A stretch of 64,000 nt of DNA from Verrucomicrobiia bacterium (GTDB lineage: Bacteria; Verrucomicrobiota; Verrucomicrobiia; Opitutales; Cerasicoccaceae), in assembly GCA_030432235.1 (NCBI GenBank), contig JAUIHT010000002.1:249136-313135 (forward strand), in the 5' to 3' direction. The notes under the pieces were generated by a model. The model saw nothing but the letters and a program-made list of their open reading frames with translations. It ran no database searches and was not told the DNA's origin. This document shows, piece after piece, positions 2,888-14,769 of the stretch; position 1 is the stretch's first letter; each line of letters opens with the position of its first letter. The translations under genes were made by a program, and so were the position numbers.

Positions 2888-3853
2888 ATGAAATACCTCG
2901 CTCTGCTGTTTTTACCTCTCTGCGTACTGGCTGGTGAAAACCGCACCTGGACGGACACTGCCGGACGCTCTTTTTCCGGTGGTCTCATCAGCGTACAAGA
3001 CGGTACCGCCTCTATCCGACGGGAAAGTGATCAACGCATTTTCGATGTGCCGCTAGACACTCTTTCCGAAGCCGACCGCACGTACATTCAGGCCAATTAC
3101 AAAGAGCCGAACTATCACTTGCAGGATATCTCCATCGCACTGGATGGGACCGGCAAGGAAGACATCGACCTAAGGATAGAATACAACCACCGAACCGTCT
3201 GGGAGGGTTCCACCCAGGCCCCGGGACCGGTTGACCTGGACATTTACGCCGACACCAACTTCAACGAGGAGCCCAAACGCGGCTATGCAAAAAACGACCG
3301 CATCTACCTCTACTTTCAAACGCCCAATTATGCCGCTCAGTGGCACCAACTCGAACTCAACGGCGACAAGTTAAAGCTCAAGGACAACAGCCGCATCCGG
3401 CTTCACAAAAAGAAATACGCCATCATCGAGTACGCCTTCTACCAAGGTGACAACCCGGACTTCACCAATCGCGAGCCCACCTACAGCGGCGTCGCGGCAG
3501 TCGGCCACTGGGGTACGCTACCGGGCTTCCGGCACGACTGGCAACTCTGGCAGGGCGATGTGGAGCAAAGCGAACTCTGGGGCAAGACACTACTGCTCGA
3601 ACACCACCGAGGCAACAACGAGAACGGCATGACCGAGGCACGTGGTACAGACTTCTCCAGACTTAACCACGCGCCCGAGGAAGGCTATACCCATTTCGGT
3701 TCGTGCGGAGAGCCATCCCTTGAAGCTAAAAACGGAAAAAGCTACTACTGCCGCGTCACAGGCCACACCAACAGCACGCGCGGCTACGGCAAAATACACA
3801 TCAAGGATATCGTTGATCAGCCCCCCGCCGGAATGGAAGTTCTGGAACGCTAG
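2888..3853 (+). CDS. secreted hypothetical protein with N-terminal SHD1-like domain
   Basis: Signal peptide MKYLALLFLPLCVLAG, then RTWTDTAGRSFSGGLISVQDGTASIRRESDQRIFDVPLDTLSEADRTYI, resembling the SLA1-homology (SHD1) module common at the N-terminus of PVC secreted proteins. Confidence 0.5.
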   Translation: MKYLALLFLPLCVLAGENRTWTDTAGRSFSGGLISVQDGTASIRRESDQRIFDVPLDTLSEADRTYIQANYKEPNYHLQDISIALDGTGKEDIDLRIEYNHRTVWEGSTQAPGPVDLDIYADTNFNEEPKRGYAKNDRIYLYFQTPNYAAQWHQLELNGDKLKLKDNSRIRLHKKKYAIIEYAFYQGDNPDFTNREPTYSGVAAVGHWGTLPGFRHDWQLWQGDVEQSELWGKTLLLEHHRGNNENGMTEARGTDFSRLNHAPEEGYTHFGSCGEPSLEAKNGKSYYCRVTGHTNSTRGYGKIHIKDIVDQPPAGMEVLER

Positions 3854-3859
3854 CGAACG

Positions 3860-5851
3860 TTACAGCAACTCCGCCACTTCCGCCGGATCAGACATCGGCT
3901 CCAGGCACTGAGTACCGACGCACAACTGATAGCCGCTTGGGCCATCCACATCGGCGGGGAGGATAAAGAGCGGTCGCCAGGGGCGCTCGCGCAGGGCAGC
4001 GGCCAGCGCGGCAGGGTCCGCGTCCTTGCACTTGATCACCGCGATGCCGACGGCTTCCTGGCAAAAGCCTGCCAGGGCGTGAGCAACAGCGGACGGCGCG
4101 CGTTCGGCCAGACCGGTGTAACACTTGCGCAGCTCACCCAGCTCGGCGGCGTACTCGGACTTGCCGGTCAGCGCATAGCGTTGGGCGAAGCAATGGACCA
4201 GGCTGCTGTTGCCGGCCGGGCGGGCGTTGTCGAGCCAGTCCTTCTTGCGCGCGGCCAGTTCTTCGTGATCATCGGCCACATAGAAAAAGCCGGCCGCGTG
4301 CTCGTCCCGAAATCTTTTGATCACGACATCCAGCAATTCCTGAGCACGCGCGATATAGGTGGCGCTATCTGCACCAAAAACCTCGGCATAGGCCGCCAGG
4401 GCTAGGTTGGCCTGAATGAAGTCCGCGTGGTCGTCGAGGCAGGCACGATGGCGCGGTCCGTCCGGGTACATCACAGCGGACAAGCGGCCTTCGGCGTCGC
4501 GGCAGTTTTCCCAGAGCCAATCGGCGGTCTCGCGGGCACGGGCGAACCAGTCCCCACGGTCCAGGGCGAAGGCCGCCGTGGTCAGCCCTCGCACCATGAG
4601 GGAATTCCAGGACAACAGACGCTTGGGGTCGCGCCCCGGCGACACGCGCTCCTGACGCGCCTCGAGAAGCTTGGCGCGCATCTCGGTAGCGGCGGTGCGC
4701 AGCATAAAATCGTCCGTGGCCAGCACGGGATTGGTGGTAGCATGTTCGAAGTTGCCGGCGGGTGTCACCCCGTAAAGCGCACAGAACATCTCGGCATCTT
4801 CCTTGCCGAGAACCTCTTCGATTTGCTCGGGCCGCCAGACGTAGTACTTGCCCTCCTCACCCTCGCTGTCAGCATCCAGCGAAGCGGCGAAGCCTTTGCC
4901 GTCACCCGCCATCTCGCGCTCCAGCCAGCCGACGGTTTCCTCAAGCACGGCGGCATAGAGGTGACGTCCGGTGCGCAGCCAGGCCTTGGCGTAGGCGTCC
5001 AGCAGCAGGGCGTTGTCGTAAAGCATCTTTTCGAAGTGCGGAATCTGCCACTGCGCATCGACGCTGTAGCGGCAAAAGCCGCCGCCTATCTGGTCGTAGA
5101 TGCCGCCCATGGCCATGCCGTCGAGGGTCTTCTGCAGAACGAAGTCCAGGCGCTGGGCCAACCCTTTGGTGGACTCCACCGCGCGGCTGCCACGCAGGGC
5201 CAGCAGGAAGTCGACGGCCATCGACGGCGGGAACTTGGGCGCGCTGCCGAAGCCGCCTCGGTCGTCGTCGTGCTGGGAGCAGATGCCCTCCCCCGCGCGC
5301 AGGAGAGCCTGCGGCGAAAGCGCCGAACCGTCTGCGCCAAGCGGCAGATTGGCGTGGGCCATGTTTTTCAAAATGTTCTCGGCGTTCTCCTCCAGGTCAC
5401 TCCGGCTGCGCTTGTAGTAGTCGGCGATGCGCATGAGGAGCTGCGGCCACGGCACGATGCCCTGCCCGGTATCCTCCGGCGGGAAGTAGGTGCCGCCAAA
5501 GAAGGGCCGCCCGTCCGGCAGGCAGAAGACGTTGAGCGGCCAGCCGCCATGGCCGTTAAGCATCTGCACGGCCTCCATGTAAATCTGGTCGATGTCAGGA
5601 CGCTCCTCACGGTCTACCTTGATGCAGACGAAATGATCGTTCATCAGGCCGGCGATGTAGGCGTCCTCGAAGCATTCGCGCTCCATCACGTGGCACCAGT
5701 GGCAGGCCGAGTAGCCGATGGACACCACCAGCGGCTTGTTCTGCGCCCGCGCGGCTTCCAGCGCCTCCGGTCCCCACGGATACCAGTCCACGGGGTTGTT
5801 GGCGTGCTGACGCAGGTAAAGGCTCGGTTCGGCGGCGAGTCGGTTGGGCAT
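3860..5851 (-). CDS. thioredoxin-domain protein YyaL (DUF255 plus six-hairpin glycosidase-like domain)
   Basis: [48 protein letters not shown] is the YyaL/spermatogenesis-associated-20 thioredoxin-like N-terminus. The track ORF extends to 5902. Start was moved to the [11 protein letters not shown] at 5851 by analogy with family N-termini. Confidence 0.85.
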
Positions 5852-6624: not shown

Positions 6625-8859
6625 ATGAAATCGCCTCCCCTCCCCGCTTGCCAAGTACCCGGTGGGTGTTTGGAATGGCCGGCCTTGAAAACCTTCTTCA
6701 AATGGCTCGGGGTCGCCCTGGCGGTGCTGATACTGCTGGTACTCGCGGCGCTGGCCACGCTGGGCTGGTGGTTGCCGCCCCTGGCGGAGTCACAAGCGAG
6801 CGAGATATTGGAGGACCTCGGCTTCGAGGCGGTCGAGATGGAGGTGGAACGTTTCGGCTACAGCGGCGTGACCATCACCGGGCTCGCCCTGGAGCGTGCG
6901 GAGGCGGACGTAGCCCTGCGCTCTGTCCTGCTGGACTATTCGCTGACCGGCCTGCTAGTGCGGCGACAGGCCGAGAGCCTGATCATCGACGGGCTGGACG
7001 TCACCGTGTACGTGCAGGCTGTATTGGAGGACTGGCAGTTCGGCGGCGCATTTATCGAAGAGCAGGATGAAGAGGACGGGCCGACCTCGGAGCCGCTCGC
7101 CCTGCCGGAAGACCTTTCATTGCCAGTCAAAAATCTCCTGCTCGACGACAGCTCCCTGACCCTGGAGGCGGACGGCTGGCGCAAACGGTTGAACGTGAAC
7201 GCCTACCTGGAGGACGGCCGCCCCGCCCGCTACCTGTTGGAGGCCGATGACGCCGCCGACCTGATCGACGTTTCCGGCACCATCGACACCATCAGCCTCG
7301 AAAACGAAACCACCTTCCATCTGCGCATGGCGCGACCCACCGAATGGCAGGGCCTGCTCGACAGCCTGAAATTGAACACACTGCCCGAAGGGCTCGACTG
7401 GGAATCCGGCGCCTTCGAACTGGAGGGCGCACTACGCACTGACGACGCCGAGCTGGGCTCGTGGACCGTCCTCGGCTCGCTCAACAACTTCGCCGCTGAA
7501 ACCGCCGACGGTTCCGCCCGCCTGGGGTTGTTCAACTTCGGAGCCAGCGGTGACGGGATGATGCCTGACAAGCTCTGGGCCGGCCTCTTCAACGGCGAAG
7601 CGCGGCTGGCCAATCCTTTGCCCGCCCGCTTTGAGTGGGAAGCCGCCACCCTGGAAACCCTCGACTCGGAACGCGTTTACCTGAAGCTCGAAGACTGGGA
7701 ACTGAGCGGCGACCTCGCCATGTACAAGCTCGGAGACGTCAGCGCCACCGCCGGGCCGGTGCGTGTCCTACTGGACGGCCCCTGGGCCACCGTGCGCGGC
7801 GCGGAGGATTTGCAGCCGTTCAGTGTACGCCTTATCCTGCAGGAAGGCCCGGTGGAGATTTTCACCGGCAAAGGCAGCATCCTCGGCACGCTGGGCCTGC
7901 GCGCGGACTTCGGTCCGGTGAAGGGCGAGCCCCAATTGGAGGCCGCCGCGACCTTAACAAATGGCACCATCAACGCGGGGCCGGTCGAGATTGCCACGGA
8001 GCGTGTAAAAGTCGCGGTTGGCGGAAAGCCGCCGAATGCACTGGCGTCCACCATTTATATAAAGAACACCGACGTCACCTGGGCAAGCGACTCGGGGCAT
8101 CTCACCGGGATTAATGGCGAAGTCCAGATCGCCAACATCCTGCCCCTGGCCATGCCGGAGAAGCAGACGCTCACCTTCAAACAGCTGGAGCAGGGCAAGA
8201 TAGTCATCTACGACGGCGAAATCAACGTGGCCTACCAAGCGGCCACGGAAAGCGAACAGGCGGAAGTCAGCCTGACCGCGGGCGGCGATTTTGCCAACGG
8301 CGGCATTGCCGGGCGCATCCAGGTGACCCTCGGCGAGCCCTTCACTGCTCAGGCGGACCTGCTCCTGCAACGCGTGAGCCTCACCTATTTGGCCGGGCTC
8401 TTCCCGAAGTTTGACGGAAAGATCCAGGGCTATGTCTCCGGCGAAATCCCGATCAAGAAAGTCGGCAACCGCGTCTTTATTCGGCCCGGTTATCTGGAAA
8501 TGGCCGCGGGCGACACCGGCAAGTTCAGCTATACCAAGCAGGGCTGGCTGACCCAGGACCCCTCACTCAATCCGGTGGAGTTTTCCAAAGACATGGACCT
8601 GGCCACGCTCATGAAGCAGCCCAAAGGCGGTGCTATCCTGACTGAGCTGGCCATGCGCGACCTCAATATGTCCGCCTTCCGCCTCGACATCCTCAAGCCC
8701 GGCGAGGGCAAAGAGCGCATCAGCATCCATCTCGAGGGTGACGGCTCCTTCAAAGGGGTCAAGGTGCCCATCGTGCTGGACGTCCCCATCCGCGGCGATG
8801 TAAAGGAACTCATTAACCTAATGTTACTGATGAACGAGAAGCTGGAGTTCGGCCAATGA
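6625..8859 (+). CDS. large N-terminally anchored protein, YdbH/AsmA-like (intermembrane lipid-transfer family) candidate
   Basis: 744 aa with a single N-terminal TM followed by a long beta-rich region. N-terminal architecture and C-terminal ISIHLEGDGSFKGVKVPIVLDVPIRGD resemble YdbH. Assignment is tentative. Confidence 0.4.
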   Translation: MKSPPLPACQVPGGCLEWPALKTFFKWLGVALAVLILLVLAALATLGWWLPPLAESQASEILEDLGFEAVEMEVERFGYSGVTITGLALERAEADVALRSVLLDYSLTGLLVRRQAESLIIDGLDVTVYVQAVLEDWQFGGAFIEEQDEEDGPTSEPLALPEDLSLPVKNLLLDDSSLTLEADGWRKRLNVNAYLEDGRPARYLLEADDAADLIDVSGTIDTISLENETTFHLRMARPTEWQGLLDSLKLNTLPEGLDWESGAFELEGALRTDDAELGSWTVLGSLNNFAAETADGSARLGLFNFGASGDGMMPDKLWAGLFNGEARLANPLPARFEWEAATLETLDSERVYLKLEDWELSGDLAMYKLGDVSATAGPVRVLLDGPWATVRGAEDLQPFSVRLILQEGPVEIFTGKGSILGTLGLRADFGPVKGEPQLEAAATLTNGTINAGPVEIATERVKVAVGGKPPNALASTIYIKNTDVTWASDSGHLTGINGEVQIANILPLAMPEKQTLTFKQLEQGKIVIYDGEINVAYQAATESEQAEVSLTAGGDFANGGIAGRIQVTLGEPFTAQADLLLQRVSLTYLAGLFPKFDGKIQGYVSGEIPIKKVGNRVFIRPGYLEMAAGDTGKFSYTKQGWLTQDPSLNPVEFSKDMDLATLMKQPKGGAILTELAMRDLNMSAFRLDILKPGEGKERISIHLEGDGSFKGVKVPIVLDVPIRGDVKELINLMLLMNEKLEFGQ

Positions 8860-9740
8860 GCACGGCTGCATCCAACGATCCTTTCACACGCCCCGGGCTC
8901 TCCCTGACGGGGCGGGCCTGGCGACGATTGGCGCGCAACAAGATGGCGCTGGCGGGGCTGTGCTTCCTCGTCGTCATGGCAACGCTGTGCTTTGCCGCGC
9001 CGCTCATCGCCCCCTACCCCTACGAGGAAACCAATCTCGCCCTCGGCCCCACCGCGCCTTCGGCAGAACACTGGCTGGGCACCGACATGCTGGGGCGCGA
9101 CCTGCTCAGCCGTCTGCTCTACGGCGGCCGTATCTCTTTCGCGGTCGGCTTACTCGCCACGGCGGTAGCCCTGAGCATCGGCGTGGTCTACGGCATGATT
9201 TCCGGCTACGCCGGTGGGCTGCTGGACCGCGCCATGATGCGCTTCGTGGAAATCGTCTACTCCCTGCCCTTCGTCATCTTCGTCATCCTGCTGGTCACGC
9301 TGTTCGGGCGCAACCTCTGGCTCATCTTCATCGCCATCGGTGCGGTGGAGTGGCTGACCATGGCGCGTATCGTGCGCGGGGAGGTCGTCAGCCTGCGGCA
9401 ACGCGCCTTCGTGGAGGCCGCCCGTTGCCTGGGTCAGCGCGGAGGCGGCATCATGCGACGTCATCTGCTGCCCAACCTCCTTGGCATCATTGTCGTCTAC
9501 GCCACCCTGACTATACCCGCCGTCATGCTGCTGGAGGCGTTTATCAGTTTCTTAGGACTCGGGGTGCAAGCCCCTATGACAAGTTGGGGTGATCTCATTA
9601 AAGTGGGGGCAGAGAATATGGAAGAATATCCCTGGCAGTTAATTTTTCCCAGTATCGTATTTGCAGTTACGCTTTTTTCGCTTAATTTTTTGGGCGATGG
9701 CCTCCGCGAGGCCTTCGACCCACGCGCTGAAAAAGGCTAA
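8856..9740 (+). CDS. ABC transporter permease, DppC/OppC/NikC family
   Basis: 294 aa with six TMs. The N-terminal OppC-type TM domain and the EAA-like loop AARCLGQRGGGIMRRHLLPN are present. Start overlaps the preceding stop by ATGA. Confidence 0.8.
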   Translation: MSTAASNDPFTRPGLSLTGRAWRRLARNKMALAGLCFLVVMATLCFAAPLIAPYPYEETNLALGPTAPSAEHWLGTDMLGRDLLSRLLYGGRISFAVGLLATAVALSIGVVYGMISGYAGGLLDRAMMRFVEIVYSLPFVIFVILLVTLFGRNLWLIFIAIGAVEWLTMARIVRGEVVSLRQRAFVEAARCLGQRGGGIMRRHLLPNLLGIIVVYATLTIPAVMLLEAFISFLGLGVQAPMTSWGDLIKVGAENMEEYPWQLIFPSIVFAVTLFSLNFLGDGLREAFDPRAEKG

Positions 9741-10696
9741 GCAGTGGCAGCCTCGTGCTGAATCCGTCGACGCGCCAGGGCGAGGGCCAGCAGACCCTTG
9801 CGCGGGCTGAATATCCACGCCACGCCGAAGAGCGCACCGGCCACCACGACCATCGCCCCGGCAATGCTCGTATCCAGCCACAGCGCCAGGTGGAAGCCCA
9901 GCAGCGAATACATAGCGCCCAGCGGCAAAGTCAGGCCTAGAATAAGCGGCAGGCGATCCGTCAGCATGGTGCCGGTGACCGCCGGAAAAATCAGCATGGC
10001 AATCACCAGAATAACGCCTACGGCCTCGAAGGAGCTCACCACGGTGACGGACAGGCAGAACATCAGCCCGTAGTGATAGACACTCGCGCGGATGCCCAAC
10101 GAACGTGCCAACGCGGGGTCGAAGGACGTCACCAGCAATTGCTTGTAGAAAAGAAACAGCAACGCCACCAGAACCAGGAACACTATCCCCATCTGCAGCA
10201 CCGGCCACGGGCCGAGGCTGACCGAGCCGATGCGCGCCTCCTGCATCAGCGGCATGAGCCCAATCTCGCCGTAGAGCACGCAGTCCGGATCGAGGTCCAC
10301 CTTGTCCGCGAAGAGCGCCAACAGGATGACACCGAGGGCAAAGAGAGTCGAAAACACAATGCCGAGGGCTGCGTCCGGCTTGACTCGCGAGCCGCGATGG
10401 ATGGCCTCGATAAGCGCAACGGTGACCAGTCCCGCCGCCACTGCTCCCGCCATCATCGGCAGCACACCGCGCGAACCCGATATCAGAAACGCAATGACGA
10501 TGCCCGGCAGGATGCTGTGGCTGATGGCGTCCCCCACCAGCGCCATGCGCCGGAAGACCAGAAACGTGCCGACCAATCCGCAGGCCGCGCTGACTAGAAA
10601 CCCCATGCCGACTATCCAGGCCGTGCCCACGGGGTCCCACTGCCAGGGCTCGACGAAGACAGTCTGAAAATCGAATGCTGGAATGAAGCCGTTCAT
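9737..10696 (-). CDS. metal (Mn/Zn/Fe) ABC transporter permease, ZnuB/MntB/YtgD-like
   Basis: 319 aa, polytopic, with ABC-3 family motifs (GDAISHSILPG, conserved permease core). Last gene of the minus-strand metal-importer operon. Confidence 0.85.
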   Translation of the reverse strand: MNGFIPAFDFQTVFVEPWQWDPVGTAWIVGMGFLVSAACGLVGTFLVFRRMALVGDAISHSILPGIVIAFLISGSRGVLPMMAGAVAAGLVTVALIEAIHRGSRVKPDAALGIVFSTLFALGVILLALFADKVDLDPDCVLYGEIGLMPLMQEARIGSVSLGPWPVLQMGIVFLVLVALLFLFYKQLLVTSFDPALARSLGIRASVYHYGLMFCLSVTVVSSFEAVGVILVIAMLIFPAVTGTMLTDRLPLILGLTLPLGAMYSLLGFHLALWLDTSIAGAMVVVAGALFGVAWIFSPRKGLLALALARRRIQHEAATA

Positions 10697-12273
10697 GAGC
10701 CGGGTTGACGGTAGCCCGTGGCGGCGGAATCACCGGCGGGTGCAGGTTGCAGGGTTTGCGGGATGGGTTTGCCGTGCGGATCGAGCTGTGGGTAGTTAAG
10801 CCGCTTCTCCAGTTCGCGCACAATCTCCTCGCCCAGGATGTGCTCAACGCGCTCGGCGTCGTCGTGAACATGATCGGCGGCGTACTGCGCGGCATTGGTC
10901 AGGTAAAGCTCCCAAAGACGGTGGTTGCGCACGACCTCGCTGGCCCGACGCCAGCCGCTGGGCGTCAACTGCACGTTGCGATGGGTGCCGGGCAGGCCGT
11001 TCTCCGTAGCCTGTACCACGGTGGCGAAGCCCGCTCGGGCCAAGGCGGCGGCGCGTTCCTCGGTTTCCGGCAGCGACTCGTTACGCTGAGCGGCGAGTTG
11101 GCCAAGGTTAAAACTTTCTTCGGCAAAGTTGCTTTGCTCTGCCAAGTGATAGAGAGCCTTCAAGGTGTTCTCATCGCGCACACGGCGGCGACGGCTCGCC
11201 TGCCGGAACCAGCGCGTAATCAGCCCGTGGCGCGGCCCGGCGAAGTAGGCCACGGTAAAGGCCACGCCTGCGCCCACCACCATAAAGGGGCCCGTCGGCA
11301 GGCTGTGCCCGAGGAAGGACAGAAAGGCGCCCAGCACCGCGCTGCCCACCCCGATGAGCGCGGCCAGCGTTAGCATCACGCCCATGCGGTCGGTCAACAG
11401 ATAGGCCGTGGCCGCCGGGGTGATGAGCATGGCCGAGACCAGCACCACGCCGGTGGCCTGCAGGGAAATCACCACCGCAAAAGCCAGCAGCGACATCAAC
11501 AGACTGTGCAGCATCCCAGTGGCCATACCGGAGCTACGCGCGAATCCGACGTCGAAGCTCGTGGTCAGCAGCTCCTTGTAAAAGAGCGCCACGGCCAGCA
11601 GCGCACAGGCGGTCACGATGCCCATCAACCAGAGGTCCTGAGTTGAGAGCGCGGCGGCCTGACCAAAGAGAAACTTGTCGATGCCGCTTTTGTTGCCCGT
11701 CGGCGAACGTTGGATCATGACGAAGAGGCAAATGCCCACAGCGTAAAATCCCGCCAGCACCATGCCCAGCGCACCGTCCTCCTTTACCGGCGTGGTCTTC
11801 TTGATCGCGCCAACCAGCCAGGTGCCGGCCAGCCCGGCCAGCGTCGCACCGATGAAAATGGCCAACGGATTCTTACTGGCGGCCCAGAGGAAGCCGAGCG
11901 CCACCCCTGGCATGACGGCGTGCGAGAGCGTGTCCCCCATGAGCGAGAGTTTGCGCACCACGATGAAGGCCCCGAGCAGCCCGCAGCAAACACCCATCAG
12001 GACCGACCCGATAAGCGCGTTGACCACCGCAGGATCGCTCAGGCTCCAGAAGCGCGCAGCCTGCTCCAGCCAGTCGGTCTCGCGCAGGTCACCGATTTTT
12101 GCCGCGTGGGCCAGGGATGTCCCAAACAGTAACCATAATATAAATATGGTTTTTTTCAGCCGCAGATGAAACGCAGATGAAACGCAGATTCGGGAGAAAA
12201 TAATCTGCGTAAATCTGCGCAAATCCGCGGCAAAAGAAAATGCCTGCTTGCTGATGGCGTCCTCCTTCATCAT
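10693..12273 (-). CDS. metal ABC permease fused to a complete DtxR-family repressor domain (YtgC-YtgR-like)
   Basis: N-terminal two-thirds is a ZnuB-type permease (LMGDTLSHAVMPGVALG...). The C-terminal 150 aa aligns to the DtxR wHTH plus metal-binding/dimerisation domain (ENTLKALYHLAEQS...RNHRLWELYLTN...ADHVHDDAERVEHILGEEIVRELEKRLNYPQLDPHGKPIP). The ATGATG start overlaps the znuC-like stop (ATGA). The first 40 codons are encoded by a CGCAGAT repeat array, so the true start may lie downstream. Confidence 0.8.
   Translation of the reverse strand: MMKEDAISKQAFSFAADLRRFTQIIFSRICVSSAFHLRLKKTIFILWLLFGTSLAHAAKIGDLRETDWLEQAARFWSLSDPAVVNALIGSVLMGVCCGLLGAFIVVRKLSLMGDTLSHAVMPGVALGFLWAASKNPLAIFIGATLAGLAGTWLVGAIKKTTPVKEDGALGMVLAGFYAVGICLFVMIQRSPTGNKSGIDKFLFGQAAALSTQDLWLMGIVTACALLAVALFYKELLTTSFDVGFARSSGMATGMLHSLLMSLLAFAVVISLQATGVVLVSAMLITPAATAYLLTDRMGVMLTLAALIGVGSAVLGAFLSFLGHSLPTGPFMVVGAGVAFTVAYFAGPRHGLITRWFRQASRRRRVRDENTLKALYHLAEQSNFAEESFNLGQLAAQRNESLPETEERAAALARAGFATVVQATENGLPGTHRNVQLTPSGWRRASEVVRNHRLWELYLTNAAQYAADHVHDDAERVEHILGEEIVRELEKRLNYPQLDPHGKPIPQTLQPAPAGDSAATGYRQPGS
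12160..12230. repeat. self-complementary array: 3 direct CGCAGAT heptamers (11-bp spacing), 13-nt spacer, 3 inverted ATCTGCG heptamers (10-bp spacing)
   Basis: Read directly: CCGCAGATGAAACGCAGATGAAACGCAGATT-cgggagaaaataa-TCTGCGTAAATCTGCGCAAATCCGCGG. The same heptamer arrays recur at 23301..23329 and 23744..23771. Confidence 0.6.
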
Positions 12274-13040
12274 TCCGCGACAGCCTTTTCGCGCTCGGCC
12301 ACTTCCGTGAGGATGTTGAGACGTCCGCCATAGGCCTTTTGCAGATTCTCCATGTTAAAGACTTCTTCCGTCGGCCCGTAGGCGACGAGCCGCATGTTGA
12401 GCATGAGGATGCGGTCGAAGTACTTCTGCGCCGTGGGCAGGTCGTGATGCACCACGAGGATCGTTTTGCCGCGCGCCTTGAGTTCAGTCAGCAGCTCGAT
12501 GATGGCGGCCTCGGTGGCGGCATCGACGCCGGCGAAGGGCTCGTCCATGAAGTACAGGTCACTTTCCTGCGCCAGAGCCCGCGCGAGGAAGACGCGTTGC
12601 TGCTGTCCGCCGGAAAGGTTGGATATCTGCCGCCCGGCGTAGGGCAGCATCTTCACCTTGTCCAGGCAGTCGCGGACGATGTCGCGGTCTGCCTTGCCGG
12701 GGCGCTTGAAGAGTCCGAGCCGTCCGTAGCGGCCCATCATGACCACGTCGAAGACGCTGACAGGGAAGTCCCAGTCGACCGACTCGCGCTGCGGCACATA
12801 GCCGACGCGGTTGACGGCCTGCCGGAAGGGCTTGCCGAAGAGCTTTACCCAGCCGCCGCTGATCGGTACCACGCCCATGATGGCCTTGATGAGGGTGGAC
12901 TTGCCCGCGCCGTTGGGCCCGACCACGCCGATGAGAGCGCCCGCTGGCGCCACCATATCGATACCGTACAGCACCGGGCGCTTGTGGTAGGCTACCGTCA
13001 GGTCGTGCACTTCCAGTGGTGGTGCCGCGTCCGGGCTCAT
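12270..13040 (-). CDS. metal ABC transporter ATP-binding protein, ZnuC/MntA/YtgB-like
   Basis: Walker A GPNGAGKST, signature LSGGQQQRV, Walker B LYFMDEP. 256 aa. Confidence 0.9.
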   Translation of the reverse strand: MSPDAAPPLEVHDLTVAYHKRPVLYGIDMVAPAGALIGVVGPNGAGKSTLIKAIMGVVPISGGWVKLFGKPFRQAVNRVGYVPQRESVDWDFPVSVFDVVMMGRYGRLGLFKRPGKADRDIVRDCLDKVKMLPYAGRQISNLSGGQQQRVFLARALAQESDLYFMDEPFAGVDAATEAAIIELLTELKARGKTILVVHHDLPTAQKYFDRILMLNMRLVAYGPTEEVFNMENLQKAYGGRLNILTEVAEREKAVAE

Positions 13041-13042
13041 GG

Positions 13043-13975
13043 CTACTTCAGCGCCTCCACCACGGTATTGACGTTATGCTGGAACATCCCCGGATACGTG
13101 CCGACATCGTACGAGACTCCGCCAGGACCGCTTTCCATCTGGCCGGGCGTGCCCATGGCGTCCGAGAAAAGTTCGCCGCCGACGCGCGCGCCGGAGTCCT
13201 GGCTGATGCGCTCGATGGTGGTGGGTGGTACGCTGCTCTCCACGAAGATAGCCGGAACCTGATGCTTTTTGATGTAATCCACCGTCCCCGAGACATCGGC
13301 CAGTCCCGCCTCGGAGGCGGTAGAAATGCCCTGCACGCCGACCACGGTAAAACCGAAGGCGCGCCCGAAGTAGTTGAAGGCATCGTGGCTCGTGATGAGG
13401 ATGCGCCGGTCCTCCGGTAAGACGGCAAAACGCTCTTTAGCCCACTCTCCCAAGGCCAGATAGTCGCTTTCCAGCGCTTCCCCGCGCTCTGCGAACTGAG
13501 TCGCATGCGCCGGATCGGCGGCAGACAGGGCCTCGACCACCACCGGGATGCAGGCGGCCCACATCTGCGGGTCAAACCACACGTGCGGGTCCCAGTGGCC
13601 CTCGAACTCCGGCGGTTCCAGGAGCGTCGCTTCATCCAGCTCCTCGGTCACCGCGTAGACCTTGGCGCCGCTGCGAGCCATCTTGGCGAAAACGTCCGCC
13701 ATGCGCCCCTCCAGCATCAGGCCGCTGTAGATGATGACGTCGGCCTTGCGGAGCTGCGCGATATCCCGCGCGGAAGGCTTGTACAAGTGCGGGTCCACCC
13801 CCGGCCCCATCAGCGGAATGACGGTCACGTCGTCTCCGCCAACCTCCTTGACCATGTCCGTAACCATGGTCGTAGTCGTGACCACGACGGGCTTGGCCGC
13901 CAGCAGCGCTCCGGCGGACATCACAGCCAGAAAAGCTACGCGGACCATGCCGGAAAACATCTTTGATATTCGCAT
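13043..13975 (-). CDS. metal ABC transporter substrate-binding protein, ZnuA/TroA/YtgA-like
   Basis: 310 aa with signal peptide and cluster-9 SBP fold motifs (DPHLYKPSARDIAQLRKADVIIYSG, HDAFNYFGRAFG). Confidence 0.9.
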   Translation of the reverse strand: MRISKMFSGMVRVAFLAVMSAGALLAAKPVVVTTTTMVTDMVKEVGGDDVTVIPLMGPGVDPHLYKPSARDIAQLRKADVIIYSGLMLEGRMADVFAKMARSGAKVYAVTEELDEATLLEPPEFEGHWDPHVWFDPQMWAACIPVVVEALSAADPAHATQFAERGEALESDYLALGEWAKERFAVLPEDRRILITSHDAFNYFGRAFGFTVVGVQGISTASEAGLADVSGTVDYIKKHQVPAIFVESSVPPTTIERISQDSGARVGGELFSDAMGTPGQMESGPGGVSYDVGTYPGMFQHNVNTVVEALK

Positions 13976-14002
13976 AATTACTTCTTTTGTTGCTCAAATA
14001 CT

Positions 14003-14020
14003 TGACTTTGACAAGTCAAA
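14003..14020. promoter_or_regulatory. palindromic operator candidate TTGACTT-tgac-AAGTCAA
   Basis: 7-bp inverted repeat with 4-bp spacer in the 134-bp divergent intergenic region between the metal-importer operon and the DtxR-family regulator gene. Confidence 0.35.
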
Positions 14021-14109
14021 ATTGTTTCTTTGATTGATTCCATGCAATCACCAGGTATTTCCATCCTCACCCCGTGGAAAAGCGGAGAAGCCCCTTCCCA
14101 ATATTAAAA

Positions 14110-14769
14110 ATGCCCAGCAGCACGGTCGAAGACTACGCCAAACAAATCTTCCTGGAGAGTCAGCACGGGGACAGTGATGTCGTGCCTATGGGTCGGGTGG
14201 CAGGCGCGCTGGCCGTCTCCCCCGGTACGGCCACCACCATGGCTAAATCCCTGGCCAAGGCCGGTCTGGCCGACTACGAGCCCCGCGCGGGCCTGCGCCT
14301 GACAGAGGAGGGCCGCATTCTGGCCCTGCGCATGTTGCGCCGCCACCGGCTTATTGAATACTTCCTCGTCGAGGTCCTGGAGATGGACTGGGCCGAGATC
14401 CACGTGGAGGCCGAAGCCCTTGAGCACGCCGTGTCCGACCGCATGCTGGAGAAGCTCGACGCCTATCTGGGCCACCCCAAGTACGACCCGCACGGCGACC
14501 CCATTCCAAACGCCGATGGTCTCATAGAGGAGCCCGTCCTGCGACCTCTCAGTGAATGTCCCGCCGGAACCAAAGCGCGCGTGGCACGCATTCAGAACCA
14601 GGACACGGCCTTTCTTAACTTCGCGCAGAGCGCCGGGCTCGTCCCCGGAGCGGCACTCCATATCCTCAAGTGTGACCAGGCCGCCGACTGCATGGAGCTG
14701 CGCGTCGGCAAGGCCGAGCCACGCGTCATCGGCCTCAGCGCCGCTGCCAGAGTGCTCGTGCGAGGGTAA
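14110..14769 (+). CDS. DtxR/MntR-family metal-dependent transcriptional regulator with C-terminal FeoA/SH3-like domain
   Basis: wHTH plus metal-binding core (RRHRLIEYFLVEVLEMDWAEIHVEAEALEHAVSDRMLEKLDAYLGHPKYDPHGDPIP) followed by an FeoA-like beta domain. The track ORF begins at 14074. MPSSTVEDY at 14110 fits family N-termini. Confidence 0.85.
   Translation: MPSSTVEDYAKQIFLESQHGDSDVVPMGRVAGALAVSPGTATTMAKSLAKAGLADYEPRAGLRLTEEGRILALRMLRRHRLIEYFLVEVLEMDWAEIHVEAEALEHAVSDRMLEKLDAYLGHPKYDPHGDPIPNADGLIEEPVLRPLSECPAGTKARVARIQNQDTAFLNFAQSAGLVPGAALHILKCDQAADCMELRVGKAEPRVIGLSAAARVLVRG

Follow-up and report, generated by a model that had tools for sequence, protein, structure and literature searches.

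Why would a bacterium fuse a repressor of the DtxR family to a metal permease and keep a free-standing repressor of the same family at the same locus? The question is raised by a 64,000-nucleotide stretch of DNA, hereafter the window, from a member of the Verrucomicrobiota, class Opitutia (contig JAUIHT010000002.1, positions 249,136 to 313,135). In this window, an operon for an ATP-binding cassette (ABC) metal importer includes a permease that continues into a DtxR-like module, and a divergent gene beside the operon encodes a separate DtxR-family regulator. The explanation proposed here has three parts: a Tro/Ytg-type importer, a free regulator that represses it through a palindromic box between the divergent genes, and a fused module that acts as a metal sensor with a different output. 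As a whole, this joint explanation is tentative, and we give it slightly less than an even chance of being right.

The Importer Locus

The genes of the locus and the region between them are as follows.

13043..13975, minus strand: substrate-binding protein (SBP), TroA-like, periplasmic metal-binding; first gene of the operon (Pfam ZnuA, PF01297, 9e-76)
12270..13040, minus strand: ABC ATPase, TroB/YtgB-like (Pfam ABC_tran, PF00005)
10693..12273, minus strand: permease-DtxR fusion of 526 amino acids (aa), YtgC-YtgR-type architecture; one open reading frame (ORF) without an internal stop
9737..10696, minus strand: second ABC-3 permease (permease 2), TroD/YtgD-like, without an extra domain (PF00950, 8e-49)
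14110..14769, plus strand: free DtxR-family regulator with an FeoA/SH3 tail, divergent, with an MntR-like ligand set (PF01325, 3e-9; PF02742, 2e-31; FeoA, 1e-10)
13976..14109: divergent intergenic region of 134 bp, with the operator and presumably both promoters

The ORFs and coordinates agree with the original prediction, made from the sequence of the window, of a minus-strand operon of an SBP, an ATPase and two permeases. Its description of genes that overlap throughout is nearly right: ATGA overlaps are found at the ATPase/fusion and fusion/permease-2 junctions, while the SBP and ATPase genes are separated by a gap of 2 nucleotides (nt). The separate, divergent DtxR-FeoA gene lies at the predicted distance of 134 bp if its start codon is the ATG at 14110 (MPSSTVEDY...), a start that is backed by homologues; the longest ORF begins with a GTG at 14074. 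A simple scan of the intergenic region for a sigma-70 promoter consensus and a terminator found neither.

With a ZnuA/TroA-type SBP, two ABC-3 permeases and one ATPase in a single operon, which is the composition of cluster A-I, the locus is, as judged from its genes, a Tro/Ytg-type (cluster A-I, ABC-3) high-affinity divalent-metal importer. The closest solved structure to the SBP is TroA of Treponema pallidum (1toa, E 8e-66), and the ligand motifs DPHLY, DPHVWFD, SHDAF and FSDAMG are conserved relative to TroA. Among solved chains, PsaC of the Streptococcus pneumoniae Mn importer (7kyp/7kyo, E 7e-62) comes nearest to the permease domain of the fusion, and the best NCBIfam model for the ATPase is an Mn/Fe ABC transporter ATP-binding protein, with a score under the equivalog cut-off. 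The free regulator matches the Mn-dependent repressor 5zr4, its closest solved structure, over the full length (E 6e-43); its best NCBIfam model is MntR of the Thermus type, also under the equivalog cut-off. The likeness of the SBP to TroA, of the permease to PsaC and of the free regulator to 5zr4, together with the metal-ligand sets described below, points by analogy to a Tro/Ytg-type importer with sensors of the Mn/Fe type. On the same analogies, the imported metal would most likely be Mn/Fe and possibly Zn.

The Operator and Its Probable Reader

Two overlapping palindromes lie between the divergent start codons, and their possible reader in the fusion is helix 3 of its DtxR module.

14007..14020: operator core TTTGAC-AA-GTCAAA (TTTGACAAGTCAAA), class A, a 14-bp 6-2-6 palindrome between the divergent start codons
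14002..14019: 7-4-7 palindrome TTGACTT-TGAC-AAGTCAA (TTGACTTTGACAAGTCAA), overlapping the core
11035..11073, minus strand: helix 3 of the fused module, aa 401-413, LPETEERAAALAR, at the position of the DtxR recognition helix

The palindrome that had been predicted in the divergent gap is present and unique in the window, where 0.01 occurrences are expected. Its description as a 7-4-7 repeat gives way to that of a 6-2-6 core at 14007-14020, which is the conserved element: the same 14-bp box is found in the 78-bp divergent intergenic region of Rubellicoccus peritrichatus, and the 7-4-7 repeat owes its form to an additional TTGAC half-site, which Rubellicoccus does not share. The box at 14007-14020 is a perfect member of class A, and no further class A box was found in the 64-kb window, even with one mismatch allowed.

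Related loci were compared as the 80 best of those in at least 587 species-representative genomes that carry the fusion. The palindromes upstream of their operons fall into clade-specific classes, given here with the number of loci, the type of free regulator and the motif of its helix 3.

Class A: TTTGAy-N2-rTCAAA; about 20 loci, Opitutia-type; DtxR-FeoA; helix 3 PGTAT[ST]M.K.L
Class B: TGTAGC-N4-GCTACA; about 9 loci; short MntR type; helix 3 [TS]HVTVIRTVQRL
Class C: TTAGSy-N2-rSCTAA; about 17 loci; short MntR type; helix 3 SQASVTNMIQ[RK]L
Class D: TGTTTTA-N4-TAAAACA; 4 loci

The operator class matches the type of the adjacent free regulator in all 20 scorable loci (10 of 10 in class A, the window included, 6 of 6 in class B and 4 of 4 in class C). 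Eight class A loci (L002, L008, L014, L016, L017, L022, L042 and L074) have no regulator gene beside the operon. Helix 3 of the fused module shows no class-specific signature and no covariation with the operator class, and it differs widely even among class A loci with a near-identical box (SLPETEERAAAL, SSSEVEKEIRQL, SMPEMHHEAIHL and TRKATLLRVKFL). Helix 3 of the free regulator, SPGTATTMAKSL in the window, is nearly invariant in related loci. Across the same nine loci, the mean pairwise identity of helix 3 is 0.75 for the free regulators versus 0.26 for the fused modules, and that of the metal-binding/dimerisation domain (domain 2) is 0.79 versus 0.78.

The two modules also differ in the charge of the surface that would face DNA. 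In the window, residues E403, E405 and E406 of the fused helix 3 align to DtxR T40, S42 and Q43, and the net charge of the helix is -3. The free regulators have no acidic residue in the DNA-facing half of helix 3, where the fused modules average 2.6, and the net charge of the segment from helix 2 through helix 3 to the wing is +3.6 in the free versus -0.9 in the fused type. Of 81 Verrucomicrobial fusions, 78% have a helix 3 with a net negative charge, whereas 73% of 52 other fused representatives have one with a net positive charge, a contrast with a Mann-Whitney p of ~1e-15 when kinship among the sequences is ignored. From these comparisons we conclude, with fair confidence, that the box is read by the free regulator and not by the fused module. 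The original prediction implied that both DtxR modules act on the palindrome, and the 20 of 20 matches between operator and free regulator, together with the acidic and non-conserved fused helix 3, speak against this. The conserved operator core TTTGAC-N2-GTCAAA and its pairing with the type of free regulator are new to this analysis.

A free DtxR/MntR-family gene adjoins the operon in about 23 of the 80 loci. Rubellicoccus has the same divergent layout as the window, and in Fulvivirga ulvae (CP089981, L082 2335-3003) and Rufibacter (L083 2408-3067) the operon itself opens with a free DtxR-FeoA gene in the same orientation. On these layouts, the presence of a free and a fused module together is a recurrent pairing in two phyla and not a peculiarity of the window. 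The expectation that lineages with a basic fused helix 3 would be without a free regulator was ruled out, since Fulvivirga and Rufibacter have both.

Boxes of the same kind are also found at other positions. Where the operon is split, with the SBP gene apart from the ATPase gene, a class A box precedes both parts. One Opitutales genome (L008) has an insertion sequence (IS)-type transposase gene at 3404-4891 between the SBP and ATPase genes, with class A boxes at 1992 and 5090 before these two genes; loci L002 and L016 likewise have boxes before both. In several marine Opitutales-type loci, class-A-like boxes with one mismatch (TTT[CT]AC[CGA]AATCAAA) lie about 0.9 kb downstream of permease 2 (L053, 9420; L073, 3921; L075, 9288; L076, 9323; L077, 9335; L078, 9336), and these may mark another gene of the same regulon. 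A second inverted repeat of the window, TGATTG-N8-CAATCA at 14033-14052, lies between the operator and the regulator gene; as the intergenic region of Rubellicoccus lacks it, it is probably due to chance.

Structure of the Permease-DtxR Fusion

Apart from helix 3, the parts of the fusion protein are the following.

11239..12033, minus strand: ABC-3 permease domain, aa 81-345 (PF00950, 5e-64)
11179..11238, minus strand: tether, aa 346-365, a GPRHG turn and a basic helix, RWFRQASRRRRVR, continuous into DtxR helix 1
10966..11178, minus strand: winged-helix domain of the fused module, aa 366-436 (AlphaFold2 (AF2) model, Foldseek and profile)
10756..10965, minus strand: metal-binding/dimerisation domain of the fused module, aa 437-506 (PF02742, 3e-24)

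A frameshift or an unnoticed stop between the permease and DtxR portions was a hazard named beforehand, and the ORF is uninterrupted. An independent Logan assembly encodes the identical 526-aa fusion protein, and thousands of homologues have the same architecture, so that the fusion is not a product of frameshift or assembly.

Pfam matches cover ABC-3 at aa 81-344 (PF00950, 5e-64) and Fe_dep_repr_C at aa 437-506 (PF02742, 3e-24). The predicted full DtxR-like module, with a winged helix-turn-helix (wHTH) and a metal-binding/dimerisation domain, is thus borne out for domain 2 by PF02742, whereas Fe_dep_repress (PF01325), the wHTH model that was to accompany it, found no match in the fusion, nor in a search of its C-terminal 179 aa by themselves at E<=10. 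Absence of a wHTH was nevertheless ruled out by structure and profile. The AlphaFold model of the module, built with 23 homologous modules, has a pLDDT of ~96 across the canonical succession of H1, strand, H2, H3, hairpin wing, H4, H5 and H6. Foldseek aligns ~140 residues of the module to DR2539, SloR, IdeR and DtxR, the best fold match being the Mn repressor DR2539 (TM-target 0.81-0.83), and SloR, ScaR and 6o5c can be aligned, from chain residue 5-7 onwards, with a profile of 45 full-length homologues. An SH3/FeoA domain is not present in the fused module.

Residues H451, E455, H470, E474, E477, H478 and N369 of the fusion occupy the ligand positions of DtxR H79, E83, H98, C102, E105, H106 and M10, and they are invariant or near-invariant in the 45 homologues and in 52 diverse fused representatives. 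At positions 10/79/83/98/102/105/106 of the DtxR numbering, the fused module has N-H-E-H-E-E-H and the free regulator D-H-E-H-E-E-H. The metal ligands, helix 1 and the dimerisation helices of the fused module are strongly constrained, helix 1 (ENTLK) being invariant, while helix 3 and the wing are variable and carry indels.

In the full-length AF2 model, the last transmembrane (TM) helix (aa 327-345) is followed by a turn (aa 346-350) and a single helix (aa 351-380), which consists of the conserved basic linker and DtxR helix 1 and carries the primary-site ligand position. The tether has a column identity of 0.70 among the 45 homologues. The short turn of five residues and the continuous helix suggest that the module is held at the cytoplasmic face of the permease, with its metal-sensitive helix mechanically coupled to the membrane domain.

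At the other end of the protein, aa 1-56 (12106-12273) are unconserved, with a column identity of 0.17 and low model confidence. Residues ~36-56 (RLKKTIFILWLLFGTSLAHA/AKIGDL) resemble a Sec signal peptide and its AxA site; the Verrucomicrobial clade conserves 'AxAAKIGDL', but fused proteins of 420-445 aa from other lineages lack the extension. The start codon of the fusion is uncertain, as a relative with 82% identity (P0002) is 37 aa shorter.

Proposed Mechanism and Alternative Explanations

Under the proposed explanation, the metal-loaded free DtxR-FeoA repressor would bind the 14-bp palindrome TTTGAC-N2-GTCAAA as a dimer and would control transcription of the operon and of its own gene. Control of the operon by the free regulator at this box is well supported by the comparative sequence data. 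The fused module would still bind metal at both DtxR sites without being a reader of this operator, and from its 5-residue tether it would report cytoplasmic or incoming metal either to the transporter, in a form of feedback or 'trans' inhibition, or to a partner protein. Most likely, the module senses metal for an output other than this operator, possibly a throttling of the transporter, and such feedback inhibition would act by way of the helix that joins the primary metal site and the last TM helix. The occurrence of free and fused modules at one locus in two phyla argues for non-redundant roles. Chlamydia-style proteolytic release is possible and is required by nothing seen here. A more specific version, in which the fused module of Verrucomicrobiota gave up operator binding and throttles its own importer as a tethered metal sensor, with transcription left to the free regulator, is conjectural, and the chances appear to be against it.

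Several points weigh against the proposed explanation, beginning with the computational nature of all the functional claims. Hundreds of species keep the wHTH fold, the core of which is conserved, and the Arg-rich turn between helix 2 and helix 3 is conserved too, so the module may still make some contact with DNA or another nucleic acid. Chlamydial YtgC, the sole experimentally studied member of the family, undergoes cleavage, and the domain set free by it is a DNA-binding repressor of its own promoter. In other fused lineages, helix 3 is basic. Since each operator class is confined to a single clade, the pairing of operator with regulator is confounded with descent. Moreover, only one of the two permeases carries the module, and a DtxR-style homodimer would therefore need two transporters or release of the module. 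We know of no metalloregulator domain fused to a transmembrane subunit that gates an ABC importer, and the known trans-inhibition domains sit on ATPase subunits (MetNI, ModBC).

The same observations bear on three other accounts of the fused module. In a two-layer model, the module would be released as a YtgR-like repressor and bind the intergenic palindrome together with the free DtxR regulator. This would agree with the architecture of chlamydial YtgC-YtgR, for which cleavage and autorepression were demonstrated experimentally, with the complete two-domain DtxR fold and invariant metal ligands of the module, and with the three TTGAC half-sites of the window palindrome, which possibly leave room for two binders. 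However, Rubellicoccus does not conserve the third half-site, the operator class goes with the free regulator in all 20 scorable loci, and the fused helix 3 is acidic at the three canonical base- and phosphate-contact positions, with a pairwise identity of 26% among loci whose boxes are nearly identical. The modelled tether has no obvious flexible linker, and iron is not established as the stimulus of the chlamydial cleavage (PMC5599777). We consider the two-layer model unlikely.

A released module could instead be a metal-dependent DNA-binding regulator of other, fast-evolving genomic targets, with the importer operon handled by the free regulator. The winged-helix fold and the Arg-rich turn conserved in hundreds of species would be expected of such a protein, the coexistence of free and fused modules in two phyla implies separate roles, and chlamydial YtgR regulates beyond its own operon (trpBA). 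Yet a winged helix with a net negative charge (a mean of -0.9, and -3 in the window) is unusual for a DNA binder, the locus showed no second palindrome that is conserved, and if the recognition helix drifts rapidly, the operators would have to drift along with it in every species, which makes this account improbable as well. Still less credible is a vestigial winged helix on a module that would only buffer metal, hand it off or oligomerise, without regulatory output. Variation and indels in the wing and on the surface of helix 3, next to strictly conserved metal sites, are what such a vestige would allow, but a useless 70-residue subdomain should have been truncated in some species, and it is lacking in 0 of the 125+ sequences examined. 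The invariance of helix 1, the connection between the primary metal site and the last TM helix, suggests signal transmission and not passive binding. A tethered metal sensor that would feed back on transport remains the reading that we prefer.

Distribution of the Fusion

The fusion is a member of an old and widespread permease-DtxR family that was already known, and not, as had been thought, an architecture little described outside Chlamydiae. Permease-repressor fusions orthologous to YtgC are placed in 11 bacterial phyla by Thompson et al. (2012), as cited in PMC5599777. A protein search returned at least 3178 matches to the fusion at E<=1e-5, and the best 120 of these relatives all have both the permease and the DtxR domain; a search of genomes found the fusion in at least 587 species representatives. 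Some homologues are named by JGI 'ABC-type Mn2+/Zn2+ transport system permease subunit/Mn-dependent DtxR family transcriptional regulator'. Among the matches listed, the nearest named relative is Rubellicoccus peritrichatus (Verrucomicrobiota, Opitutia, Puniceicoccales), with 66% identity.

The 80 best loci are almost all from Verrucomicrobiota, with one from a metagenome-assembled genome (MAG) of Sumerlaeota, and the gene order SBP-ATPase-fusion-permease, whose conservation the original prediction proposed to check, is essentially invariant in them. A search of 1.84 billion representatives with a profile of the module found mostly fused proteins (418-531 aa) or fragments among the best 150, and a distant fused branch is abundant in Cytophagales (Bacteroidota), cultured species included (Fulvivirga, Rufibacter, Cyclobacteriaceae). 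The signature N10-H79-E83-H98-E102-E105-H106 and the 'EN.LK' helix 1 are near universal in the 52 diverse fused representatives, which argues for one old fused lineage.

A few fused proteins retain a C-terminal FeoA/SH3 domain (P0213, 531 aa; P0235, 513 aa), and P0235 has a canonical Ser/Thr-type helix 3 together with Asp at the Met10 position. These two proteins may be independent or less derived fusions. Four loci (L006, L015, L046 and L051) are typical Verrucomicrobial fusion operons in MAGs with implausible names (Chitinophaga pinensis, Klebsiella pneumoniae, Akkermansia muciniphila), and the taxon labels of such misnamed MAGs are not to be trusted.

Comparison with Known Systems

The closest known counterpart in architecture is YtgABCD with YtgC-YtgR (CT069) of Chlamydia trachomatis, which, like the host of the window, belongs to the Planctomycetes-Verrucomicrobia-Chlamydiae (PVC) group. 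The two systems, compared here by architecture and not by sequence, share the gene order SBP, ATPase, permease::DtxR and permease, the position of the DtxR module at the C-terminus of the first ABC-3 permease, and the DtxR ligands. Chlamydial YtgC is also cleaved in E. coli, giving a product of ~28-30 kDa, and its DNA binding is iron-dependent. The protease and the stimulus of this cleavage are unknown, and no cleavage motif is known (PMC5599777), so the earlier description of a repressor released in response to iron goes too far: the iron dependence concerns DNA binding only. The locus in the window differs from the chlamydial one in the acidic, unconserved helix 3 of the fused module, in a promoter palindrome that tracks the free regulator and in an extra N-terminal extension that resembles a signal peptide. 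No named chlamydial fusion protein was among the matches listed in the protein-database and representative searches, and no protein with the WWW motif was found in the retrieved sets.

The TroABCD-TroR system of T. pallidum shares with the window the ABC-3 transporter type, an SBP for which TroA is the closest relative, with conserved His-His-His-Asp ligand motifs, and a free DtxR-family regulator at the locus. In T. pallidum, the regulator is solely a separate gene at the 3' end of the operon and there is no fused module, while the window has a fused module and a divergent free regulator with an FeoA tail. The free regulator has the Asp/Glu-type Mn-sensor ligand set of Mn-responsive DtxR repressors (5zr4/5zr6, DR2539, SloR, ScaR). 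The fused module departs from these repressors, as it lacks the FeoA/SH3 domain, has Asn at the position of DtxR Met10 or MntR Asp8 and an acidic helix 3, and is covalently joined to a membrane protein.

PsaBCA of S. pneumoniae belongs to the same ABC-3, type II-like class of importers; unlike the fusion, PsaC is a homodimer without a C-terminal domain, and PsaBCA is regulated by a separate DtxR-family repressor, PsaR. A functional analogy, and nothing closer, can be drawn with MetNI and ModBC, in which a cytoplasmic ligand-binding domain attached to the transporter stops import when substrate accumulates, the logic that is proposed here for the fused module. The regulatory domains of MetNI and ModBC are carried by the ATPase subunits and have a fold unrelated to DtxR, and to our knowledge, trans-inhibition of this kind has not been documented for ABC-3 metal importers.

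If the fused module is indeed a tethered sensor, it would be the first metalloregulator-derived allosteric gate on the transmembrane subunit of an ABC importer, and the chlamydial 'cleaved repressor' would be one specialised outcome of a broader family. Fused modules and free regulators share a locus in hundreds of free-living Verrucomicrobia and Cytophagales, and for Verrucomicrobia the comparative data give the operator to the free regulator. The question of why a repressor is fused to a permease thereby becomes a concrete one in cultured Rubellicoccus or Fulvivirga, where the choice lies between DNA binding, cleavage and direct control of transport, and the role of the fused module would bear on the evolution of chlamydial YtgR.

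Neighbouring Genes

Downstream of the metal operon, and converging on it, lies a gene for an OppC-type peptide ABC permease (8856-9740, plus strand), which overlaps the end of the permease-2 gene by 4 nt (9737-9740). It is preceded by a gene for a YdbH-like protein of 744 aa (6625-8859, plus strand). Both the OppC-type and the YdbH-like neighbours are also present in the independent assembly L081.

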